The notes under the pieces were generated by a model. That model was given only the letters and a program-made list of their open reading frames with translations, was not told where the DNA came from and did not search any database. DNA of 64,000 bases from Sphyrna mokarran (Eukaryota), in NCBI GenBank assembly GCA_024679065.1, contig JAGIQG010000005.1, forward strand, positions 92,008,001 to 92,072,000, given 5' to 3'. This document shows positions 44,801-56,125 of this stretch, in pieces (the stretch's first letter is position 1; the number at the start of each line of letters is the position of its first letter). The translations under genes were made by a program, and so were the position numbers.

Positions 44801-45275
44801 TCAGTTGAAAAATGGATCCAATTCAACATCCATATTCACATCAGGTACCAGCTGATCGATTGCTTCTTTTTCATTAGCACCATATCCGGAACTAGAAGCT
44901 GCAAAATCAGAGGCAAACCAGGGATGGTCCAAGATTTCCCGGGACGTCAGCCTTTCCAAAGGCTCTCGACGCAAAATGCTACGGATAAGGCATTTCGCCC
45001 GTGGGGAAAGAGTTTCTGGAATGTTAAACTGGCCACGCCGAATCTTACTAAAGAGTGAACTTGGTTCCACATCATGGAAGGGGTACCGTCCAACAAGCAT
45101 TGTGTACAGCATTACACCTAGACTCCAAACATCAGCTGCCTTACCAGAGTAGCTGCCATTGGTGTTAAGGATCTCAGGGCTCACGTAAGCTGGGCACCCG
45201 TGCTTGTCAGAGAGAGCATCAACTTCACCATTCAATATGCAAGCATCCTCCAAGCTTTCCAGCTTTACTCGAGTC
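44801..45275 (-). CDS. TRIB2: TRIB2 coding exon 3 (475 nt including TGA)
   Basis: Acceptor tctctcattgcag|GACTCGA restores the frame ([14 protein letters not shown] replacing DFG). Contains [19 protein letters not shown] (MEK-binding) and DQLVPD (COP1-binding); ends LDPFFN-TGA. Exons sum to 273+293+475=1041 nt, i.e. 346 aa. Intron 2 is 7682 bp. Confidence 0.98.
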
Positions 45276-45965: not shown

Positions 45966-46310
45966 AGTGGCATGGTGGTTCAGTGGTTAGACTGCTGCCT
46001 CACTGTAGCAGGGACCAGAGTTCAATTCTAACCATGGGTGACTGTACGTCTATGTGGAGTTTGCACATTCTCCCTGTGTCTATTTGGGTTTCTTCCGGGT
46101 GCTCAGGTTTCCTCCCACAGTCTAAAAATGTGCAAATTAGGTCGATTAGCCACAGCAAATTGTTCTTTAGTGTTCTAAGATGTATAGGTTCAAGGAACTA
46201 GTGGGTAAACACGTATAATTACAGAGATAGGGCCTGGATATGATGCTCTGTTGGAGAGTTGGTGCAGACTTGATGAGCTGAATGGCCTCTTTCTGCAATG
46301 TAGGAATTCT
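45966..46310 (+). mobile_element. HE1-type SINE in TRIB2 intron 2
   Basis: Forward consensus with CR1-like tail. Confidence 0.9.
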
Positions 46311-46979
46311 AACTGAAACCTTAATTAATTCTTAATGTTTGTAAAGCTATGGGCTTCATTAATGGGACTTCTAGGCATAAAAGGAATGTAACGGAAGTCA
46401 AATAACATTGACGTTCCTATCAGATCCTCACACATTAGACCCCAACATCAAGGCAAATAATTTACTCTTCTTCCCAAAAACAAGCACTTCCTCAGAAACC
46501 GGGCAGAAAGAAGTAGATCAAAACATCTTTCACTACTTGCATGCCACAACCCACAACACAGTTATACTGGCAGGTATAGGAGCAAATCAGCTCTCTCATT
46601 TCTTGCTTATGAATGTCAGAGACAGTGAATATAGCTAGCTGCACAACCAGCTCCAGAGATCAAAAGCAAATTATTAAGATTTTGAGTTAACATTTTAAAA
46701 ACGGTAAGTCATTGGAGATAGACACTGAAATGATAGCATAGTTACACACAAAATTCTGTATTAAATTGATTACCTGCTGCATTCAATCACCTCTGAAGAC
46801 AACACTATCTTTATAGCAAGGACTGTGGAAACTTCAACTCAATACAAACCTAGCTTATAAAATTAACATGCATCAGAATTGATAAAATCATTACTCAAGG
46901 AATAGTGAAATTTCAGTTTCCAATTCAACATTTCCTTCAAAACCCATTTTTAAATGTGCAAGACTTGATGTATAACTTC

Positions 46980-53659: not shown

Positions 53660-53932
53660 CTTGCAAACAAGCTCCTCGCCGGTATGCAGATGCACAGCCC
53701 CGAAAACGTGGTCCCCCTCCAAAGGCTCCAACAATAGATACTGTCCGATTTGAGAAATGCAATGACACGAGTTGGGGGTTTCAGGTGGGCTGGGGGAGCC
53801 GAGGTTCGGGCTGAAACTCTGGCTGCAGTCACTAGTCCTCACACAAGATAATTCTTCATATTCGTGGTGAGCCTTGTGCCTCGATCGTCCATACCTCACA
53901 ATGCTGATTGGACTGGATCTCTGTATGCTCAT
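53660..53932 (-). CDS. TRIB2: Tribbles homolog 2 pseudokinase, coding exon 1 (91 codons)
   Basis: Translates [18 protein letters not shown]...[17 protein letters not shown]...[27 protein letters not shown], matching the TRIB2 N-terminus as recalled. ATG at 53932-53930; phase-0 donor AAG|GTAACAG at 53660/53659. Confidence 0.97.
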
Positions 53933-55200
53933 GGGGCTGTAAATAATAGTCCTCTTTATAAAATAAGAAAAAAAGGCTTCACTTCCAAAGCGTTCACGTT
54001 TGTATTAAACAATTCAGTGAGTTCTGTTTACTCCAGAGAACTGTTGGGAGCCTTTCCCCCTCCCTTTTCTCTTGCACTTTGGTCTACACTTGTAGGGTCC
54101 AGTTATATTAATTGTTTCCCCAGCAAGAGTAATTCAAAATAAGCACCATTTGGAGTGATAATGCAGAACGTTGTTTATTGCTACAGTTTTTTTTGCATAG
54201 ATTATTGGATGGTGGTGGTTATATATATGTGTGTGTGTATATATAAATAAATGCAGCTTTCAGAGTACAGAAGAGTCCAAGGCAACCACTGATGTTGTCG
54301 AAGAGGAACTCCAGATCACAATGCTTTTTTGTTCTTGCGGGTTACGTGCGGATACCGAGAGCAGAGTGAGTGGCCGAGGCGCTTTGCACACAAGCCAGCC
54401 AGCCAGGTGGCGAGGGACAGGGAAACTCGCTCCGCTTCCTCACCCTCTTGACTCTAGGTGGCGTCCGCTCCCCTCTGTCGCCGCTGTCTCTCCCCCTCTC
54501 TCCTGTGCAGTCGAAACAAAATAGCCTCAAACTATCATCAAACAAGAAGTCTGGCATTCACCCTTTCGTCATCTGTTCTGCAACGTCCAAGTGCAACTTC
54601 AACAAGGAGATTTATTTTGCACTCATTGAGAAAGTCTTTGGCTGGCGAGTGCTTTCCGATTTTTTTTGGCGAGCATATATGCATATGGATATATATATAT
54701 ATATAAAAATTTCTTCTTTACAAAAAAAAAGTAACAGTCAAGGACAAAAGAGATCAACCGTATCGTGTTCCCACCGTGCAAAGTCTTAATTCCTCCAAGC
54801 TTAGGTTCCAAACATACAGCGATGACTTTCAAACTCCCAGAGATGCCTTTTGCAAATTGCACAGTTGTTGAGATGACGACCTTGGGATGCACAATTTTTT
54901 TTTGTTTGGAGCTTTGCAAACACGAAAAAGCCGGCGGGGAGACAGAGAACAAAAACAAAAAAATGAAAAACAAAAGAAAATAAAAAATATCTGCAGCAGC
55001 CTCTCTTTCTCTTTTTGCTCCTAGGTGAAGGGATGGCCGTTAGAACGGGGCCGATCCCCTTTCAGCAACAGCCGACATGAGCCATCATCATCTTTCCGCT
55101 GCCTGGTGTGTGTATGTGTGGAGTTACGTGGCTGCAATGTGAATAATATCAGCAGCACCAGCGCACACTAACTCCCATTCACCACAGCCGCTGACTGCGG
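53933..55200 (-). other. Probable long 5' UTR of TRIB2 with upstream AUGs
   Basis: Repeat-free, CpG-retaining sequence between the promoter cluster and the ATG. The TSS position is inferred only. Confidence 0.6.
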
Positions 55201-55450
55201 CTCCCCTGCGCCGCACACTAACCTGATAAGTCAATGGCCCGCCCCCTCGGCGCCAGCAGCCTGTCAATCACCGGAGGAAGAGGCCGCCACCCATTGGGCA
55301 GTGCTACCGTCAATCACCCAGGCGGCCGCCGTCCATTGGGCAACGTGATCGTCAATCATCCAAGTGACCGCTGTCCATTGGACAAAACTGCTGTCAATCA
55401 GGAGCGTGCGTCACCGCCGCCCATCAAATTAGGCTGCGCTTGCCCGCTCA
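55200..55450 (-). promoter_or_regulatory. TRIB2 proximal promoter (GC box, three CCAAT boxes, four TGATTGAC elements)
   Basis: CpG-rich island in a CpG-poor genome. GC box cccgcccc at 55238-55245; ATTGG (minus-strand CCAAT) at 55293, 55335, 55377; (c/t)(t/c)gtcaatca at 55261, 55307, 55349, 55391. Confidence 0.85.
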
Positions 55451-56125
55451 CTGGGTTAAGTAGGTGATATCCCTCCGCACCTTCTGTGTGTAGCTCTCTC
55501 CTGAGTATTGGAGTGCATTCAGTTGCACCCAGTTACCATAAGATTCCCCCCTCTTTTCAGAGTCATGCTGCAAAAAATAAAAAACTTCCCACCTTTTCCC
55601 GATGCTCTTGGATTTTTTTTGTTGCAAGGGCAAGAATTGATGGAAGCCCCCCTTCCCTCGCTCTATTTTCTTGCTACTTTGGTATTCAATGAAGCGGCGG
55701 AAGGAGTGGGACTGGGTGAGCCGGCCCGGCAACCTGATCCTGAGCAGCTGCGTCTCTTTATTCATAGTTATTCATAGAGGAGGTGAATGTTGAGGACAGC
55801 GTTGCGCAACACACTCAGGAATGTAGGCAGCAGGAAGAGAGCCACAGGCAACTGCATTCTTTCTGCTCTCTCTCTCTCTCCCTCCCTCCCAAAGTAATAC
55901 AGATGTAGCATAATTCCTGGTATATTTAGGAGTTACAGGTGCATGTAATAAATCTCTTATCCCCACACCCCAGGCACAAATTATTAAAGATAATATTTGC
56001 ATCTTAAGTTTGCAACCATCAGAGATGTAACACTTTACGTTAAGCTTCCCAGGTTTTCTGGCATAAATATTCATATGAGTTATTTCAAATATTGTGTATT
56101 CCCTAAGAAAAAGAGTAACTACGGT

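Follow-up and report, generated by a model that had tools for sequence, protein, structure and literature searches.

The window, by which we mean the whole 64,000-nucleotide stretch analysed here, carries on its minus strand a gene that the first-pass annotation had named TRIB2, and this identity is upheld by the peptide matches of two exons. The exon 2 peptide matched TRIB2 in the PDB at E 2.8e-48 (TRIB1, 1.5e-34), and for the exon 1 peptide the identity is 93% to shark TRIB2, 92% to ray TRIB2 and 74-81% to that of most bony vertebrates. On the same strand, 1.33-1.47 kb 5' of the TRIB2 ATG, three copies of a TGATTGAC-N11-CCAAT unit follow one another head-to-tail at a step of 42 bp. The features of the locus are as follows:

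44801..45275, minus strand: third coding exon of TRIB2, to the stop codon
52958..53250, minus strand: second coding exon of TRIB2, which gave the PDB TRIB2 match
53660..53932, minus strand: part of the first coding exon of TRIB2, ATG at 53932
54250..55750, no strand assigned: CpG-rich region (CpG o/e 0.64-0.77 vs 0.25 for the whole window), taking in the array as well as what is presumed to be a long 5' leader
55239..55245, minus strand: GC box (GGGGCGG), 3' of the unpaired decamer
55261..55270, minus strand: perfect decamer TGATTGACAG with no CCAAT partner, at 46 bp from unit 3
55275..55400, minus strand: the three 42-bp repeat units, with a GC-rich 18-bp linker behind each CCAAT
55293..55316, minus strand: DECA-CCAAT unit 3, TGATTGACGG
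55335..55358, minus strand: DECA-CCAAT unit 2, TGATTGACGA; last base G in all four other organisms compared, one core change in organism X8
55377..55400, minus strand: DECA-CCAAT unit 1, TGATTGACAG, 11 bp from GAC to CCAAT; TGATTGACGG in all four other organisms

The units point toward the gene, decamer first and CCAAT second, and judged from the sequence the array site is likely the TRIB2 promoter. The presumed TRIB2 leader of ~1.3 kb (53933-55230) contains 14 ATGs, with a divergence in X8 of only 2.6% over its 5' part.

Three units 42 bp apart, each with 9 bp between decamer and CCAAT box, had been described by the first-pass annotation, and all of these coordinates were borne out: the decamers start at 55307, 55349 and 55391 and the ATTGG boxes at 55293, 55335 and 55377, with a gap of 9 bp between ATTGG and decamer in every unit. 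The minus-strand letters of the decamers are TGATTGACAG (55391), TGATTGACGA (55349) and TGATTGACGG (55307); all three have the GAnnGAC core, as TGATTGAC, and, as a correction to the earlier description, the middle one is non-canonical. A fourth decamer had also been assigned to the array. It is indeed a perfect decamer (forward letters CTGTCAATCA, at 55261), but its membership is not sustained, as it stands 46 bp from unit 3 (47 bp in three of the four other organisms), shows no CCAAT box 11 bp away and is followed by the GC box. Just 3' of this GC box on the minus strand, a GATA site and a TGAC half site occupy 55222-55236, with no change among the differences listed for the four other organisms.

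The composite ATTGG-N10-YGTCAATCA has three exact matches in the 64-kb window, all of them in the TRIB2 array; shuffled windows held a mean of 0.06 composite matches, and none of 100 reached four. A one-mismatch copy at 18340-18363, where there is no CpG-rich region, is probably due to chance. Tandem Repeats Finder reported 55278-55385 with period 42, 2.6 copies and 77% matches, and the score of 118 was the highest of its 54 rows. Together with the pairwise identities of the units (32/42, 26/42 and 26/42) and the likeness of their linkers (11-12/20 identical), this agrees with the earlier proposal of an origin by tandem duplication. There is no fourth 42-bp unit on either side, the flanking 42-mers being 10-17/42 identical. 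The 331-bp array region is single-copy in its own genome, on which ground a transposon origin is rejected, and no look-alike stretch was found among the other genomes compared; a coding function is rejected as well, since the region holds just short chance ORFs.

By geometry, the TRIB2 units are the element published as DECA-CCAAT, in which GAnnGAC and CCAAT lie 11 bp apart and are bound by PBX/PREP and NF-Y with the N-terminus of Sp2 as the bridge (bioRxiv 10.64898/2026.02.16.706105); an equal geometry is described in zebrafish (PMC6023610; PMC11802806). In each of the three units GAC and the same-strand CCAAT are separated by 11 bp, and the 9-bp gap noted earlier is thus the published 11-bp rule in other terms. 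The proposal of a TALE decamer joined to an NF-Y CCAAT box stands, but Meis as the reader of the decamer is not supported, as the geometry is that of the PBX/PREP-NF-Y-Sp2 element and Sp2/PREP fits better. According to the preprint, PREP occupies chiefly promoters, MEIS enhancers, and the 11-bp geometry is tied to PREP/PBX and Sp2 (bioRxiv 10.64898/2026.02.16.706105).

The element is abundant in the same genome, with 860 DECA-CCAAT matches vs 21 for the reversed pattern, and 237 vs 9 for the CpG-containing form. The reversed-pattern control is unfair on base composition, and we therefore used the opposite order, CCAAT-N18-decamer, as a second yardstick (217 matches vs 50 reversed). More than half of the sampled anchors (107/197) lie inside CpG-rich 500-bp stretches, and additional TGAnnGAC sites near anchors have a CCAAT at exactly 11 bp in 36 of 149 cases. 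The NF-Y consensus is RRCCAAT. The TRIB2 boxes are preceded by GC, GC and GT, and two purines are present in 92 of 145 sampled modules; because the purine just 5' of CCAAT is missing, the TRIB2 boxes may lean on cooperation with PBX/PREP-Sp2.

Contigs from four other organisms (X8, X9, X12 and X15) cover the array at 90-95% identity, and 40 of 69 differences overall were listed (39 of 40 in X8, 32 of 40 in X9, 28 of 42 in X12 and 26 of 39 in X15). Between 55261 and 55400, these 40 listed differences of 69 change 1 of 47 core positions vs 25 of 93 non-core positions (Fisher p 1.5e-4), and X8 has the lone listed core change, in its unit-2 decamer. In all four organisms, owing to changes at 55349 and 55392, the three decamers all read TGATTGACGG. 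Divergence from X8 is 18.6% in the array, and 2.6% and 3.3% in the flanks, and as far as can be judged from these alignments the linkers of the array drift fast and the motif cores hold. Since most differences are common to the four organisms, they amount to approximately one lineage contrast rather than four independent tests. A comparison of whether the units are more alike in the other organisms gave similar figures: among their variant letters 14/26 match another unit, and among the window letters 16/26. No units were gained or lost in any of the four, and the lone listed indel, a single base at 55275 in three of them, lies in the stretch that separates unit 3 from the fourth decamer. All four organisms keep the 42-bp steps, with indels too rare among them to prove constraint; hence, the earlier claim of selection is supported for the motif cores, and its extension to geometry is more than such rare indels can show. 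In X8, the single change at 55352 puts an opposite-strand CCAAT box in place of the unit-2 decamer core; one substitution separates the two motifs, which suggests a possible route of motif turnover.

The question of spacing can be addressed more broadly with the other modules of the genome. The first 100 matches listed for the 860, and likewise for the 237 of the CpG-containing form, supplied a sample of 183 loci; these hold 197 anchors and fall into 145 homology clusters, with two or more modules present in 38 of the clusters. Early contigs and decamers with a CpG are over-represented in this sample. Loci L032-L065, found through a fixed 18-bp link, and the TRIB2 locus do not enter the phasing statistics, having been selected for 42 bp. 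Across the 145 sampled non-homologous loci no neighbouring modules were less than 40 bp apart, and neighbour distances cluster near 41, 52, 62, 71, 83, 92 and 102 bp, with a period of 10.2-10.5. The counts were 11 at 40-44, 4 at 50-53, 3 at 61-63, 4 at 68-72, 8 at 81-86, 4 at 91-93, 4 at 102-107, 2 at 112-117 and 5 at 122-127 bp.

For the 63 pairs up to 200 bp the Rayleigh R is 0.47 at a best period of 10.45 (reached by 0/2000 jitter nulls), and for one minimum per homology cluster (34) it is 0.57 (1/2000). Phasing is weaker without the 40-44 class (52 pairs, 7/2000; 24 cluster minima, 98/2000), and the 12 pairs beyond 200 bp show none. Windows at 5, 6, 7, 9, 10 and 11 turns hold 17 distances vs 6 in the half-turn windows (p 0.0026). 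Phasing is also present in the 39 pairs with unlike linkers (R 0.41, 9/5000 nulls), and recent duplication is therefore not its whole cause. Around the anchors, phasing extends to same-strand CCAAT boxes whether or not they have a decamer (194 boxes, R 0.35) and to decamer-to-decamer distances (55 sites, R 0.45-0.48), the two measures not being independent of each other. No phasing was seen for four control pentamers or for GC boxes. With one anchor per cluster, CCAAT boxes 30-36 bp from the anchor CCAAT number 0 upstream and 21 downstream, which argues that the three-turn slot is excluded on the decamer side; at 40-44 bp the numbers are 13 upstream and 19 downstream.

A pair at 40-44 bp occurs in 10 of the 145 clusters and three in a row in one. 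These distances make 42 bp the modal and tightest in-phase step of the genome and no peculiarity of TRIB2, the spacing of which likely reflects a general packing rule. The whole-turn spacing emphasized in the first-pass annotation is thus over-represented genome-wide, but it is not special to TRIB2, given the 10 of 145 loci and longer arrays elsewhere. We consider the rule, with no neighbour under 40 bp and whole-turn steps above that, to be a more useful result than the TRIB2 locus, and found no report of inter-module phasing in a literature library without most subscription papers.

The largest array lies before MLH1 (L062, G000:C789, ~45990-46600, minus strand) and has 14 CCAAT boxes at steps of 41-43 bp, mostly 42-43, with one step of 78 bp; most boxes have a decamer at 11 bp, and the array, on a 53.5-kb contig, ends ~120 bp before the MLH1 ATG. 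Mlh1 is a Sp2 peak in mouse fibroblasts (PMC4368557). Seven units at 41-42 bp, with an internal spacer of 10 bp, precede a hnRNP-H/F-like gene (L065, G000:C738, ~55212500-55212790, minus strand), three modules at 40 bp precede a cyclin Y-like exon (L066:4991-5094; weak match, E 0.0025), and five modules at 52- and 51-bp steps precede DNM1L (L067:4415-4840). All four arrays are oriented alike, toward the coding exons. A dispersed homologous family (L002, L007, L022, L074, L078, L089, L100, L104, L107 and L113) carries modules in pairs, at distances of 117-126, 199 or 216 bp, and may be a module-spreading mobile element or a gene family.

We think it probable that the TRIB2 array consists of three DECA-CCAAT modules spaced at 42 bp, likely duplicated, predicted to be occupied by PBX/PREP and NF-Y, likely bridged by Sp2, and placed on one face of the DNA. 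By analogy with the published element, each unit is predicted to bind PBX/PREP on the decamer and NF-Y on the CCAAT box, likely joined by Sp2. With the decamer sitting 5' of each CCAAT box, a module would need ~40 bp; this would remove the three-turn slot (31-33 bp) and leave four turns as the tightest in-phase packing. In the preprint, NF-Y is reported to bend DNA by ~80 degrees over a ~30-bp contact and to keep the upstream promoter border nucleosome-free (bioRxiv 10.64898/2026.02.16.706105). Steps of four turns would bring the three complexes and the NF-Y bends onto one face, and in-phase bends combined with several copies of NF-Y would likely leave the upstream promoter edge free of nucleosomes, the outcome being a TALE-dependent baseline for TRIB2. 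The array is a candidate for a direct TALE/NF-Y input to TRIB2, a gene with a reported dependence on Pbx3/Meis1 in mouse leukaemia cells. The phased enhanceosome proposed in the first-pass annotation would require the units to cooperate, and one of the beta-interferon type would need every site and the phase between sites for activity; the phasing observed here is statistical, across loci.

More tentatively, one might envisage a second-level grammar, in which neighbours keep to whole turns, the TALE footprint imposes a minimum of four, and duplicated units of 40-43 or 51-53 bp give rise to cooperative PBX/PREP-NF-Y-Sp2 polymers; such a grammar would also explain the human double-CCAAT peak at ~43 bp. 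If so, vertebrate promoters would grow by duplication of units, and the conserved TRIB2 triplet and the 14-box MLH1 array would stand for a small and a large case.

The units could instead work independently, duplication having merely supplied redundant sites and 42 bp being an inherited repeat length with no cooperation between units. The linkers are alike enough (11-12/20) for the spacing to have come with the duplication, the core change is tolerated in X8, and the copy-number effect of a 43-bp NF-Y minisatellite at human ABO is disputed (PMC7187371); yet whole turns also recur in pairs with unlike linkers, at 5, 6, 7, 9 and 10 turns, which disfavours a free choice of repeat length and leaves this explanation unlikely in our view. 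Nor do we see much probability in phasing as a property of NF-Y, with CCAAT boxes phased to the start site, the first nucleosome or other NF-Y and decamers stabilising weak CCAAT boxes. It would account for the phasing of same-strand boxes irrespective of a decamer and for the imperfect bases in front of the TRIB2 boxes, and it is in line with human double-CCAAT classes 10 bp apart at Sp2/PBX3 peaks (PMC4889920); decamer distances, though non-independent, are nevertheless phased at least as strongly, and such phasing would be compatible with the three-module reading that we prefer.

A reading of the decamers mainly by PBX/MEIS, with HOX, would turn the array into the inducible element through which Meis1/Pbx3 control TRIB2, and dependence of Trib2 expression on Pbx3/Meis1 dimerisation in Hoxa9-transformed mouse cells is indeed noted in a review (PMC11702054). 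The allocation of PREP to promoters and MEIS to enhancers, and of the 11-bp geometry to PREP/PBX with Sp2, speaks against it, making it very improbable. A decayed, functionless repeat might be suggested by the high divergence of the array relative to the flanks in X8, but as the listed changes avoid the cores and the exact published geometry occurs three times over, we give this hardly any credence.

A point against the preferred reading is that in the available part of a mouse fibroblast Sp1/Sp3/Sp2/Nf-y peak table (PMC4368557, supplement 10), where Mlh1 has its Sp2 peak, Trib2 is not among the entries listed. Sp1/Sp3 peaks at Trib2 are likewise absent among them, for which reason the promoter may be closed in fibroblasts or assigned to another transcript. 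No mention of NF-Y at TRIB2 was found in the literature library, which lacks most subscription papers.

The TRIB2 units resemble the published DECA-CCAAT element in the GAnnGAC-11bp-CCAAT arrangement, in orientation and in their promoter-like, CpG-rich site. In the available part of the preprint, the mouse Sp2 promoter has two 11-bp pairs and one 10-bp pair, the spacing treated is that inside a module and not between modules, and the terms 'tandem' and 'helical turn' have 0 occurrences; TRIB2 differs in that its three units follow in tandem at exactly 42 bp, and in being a case from a cartilaginous fish. Closely spaced CCAAT boxes are also familiar, as ~40% of Sp2-specific promoters have two of them 30-50 nt apart (mean ~35; PMC4368557), and human double-CCAAT classes at 26, 36 and 43 bp coincide with Sp2/PBX3 sites (PMC4889920), the human 36 or 43 class being a possible match for our 40-44 class as distance conventions may differ by the 5-bp box. 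In the accessible text of these two papers, the longer class is not tied to an intervening decamer, and the 43-bp class is given without a partner factor.

Another relative is the human ABO minisatellite, with four tandem 43-bp units that are each bound by NF-Y and reporter-active in one cell line; unlike the TRIB2 array, it lies 3.7-3.9 kb upstream, is polymorphic in copy number and has a disputed effect (PMC7187371). The near-constant unit length (period 42, 77% matches) is a minisatellite trait that TRIB2 shares with ABO, but a varying copy number is not, as the number of units is constant in all four other organisms. As the DECA-CCAAT element was known, the TRIB2 locus alone adds little, and the part worth following is the spacing rule between modules, which could provide a simple test of cooperation between Sp2-bridged complexes, for which the three-unit TRIB2 array is of convenient size. 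Set beside DECA-CCAAT, the tandem CCAAT boxes at Sp2 sites and the 43-bp minisatellite at ABO, all of them known, the TRIB2 array is a real and conserved example.
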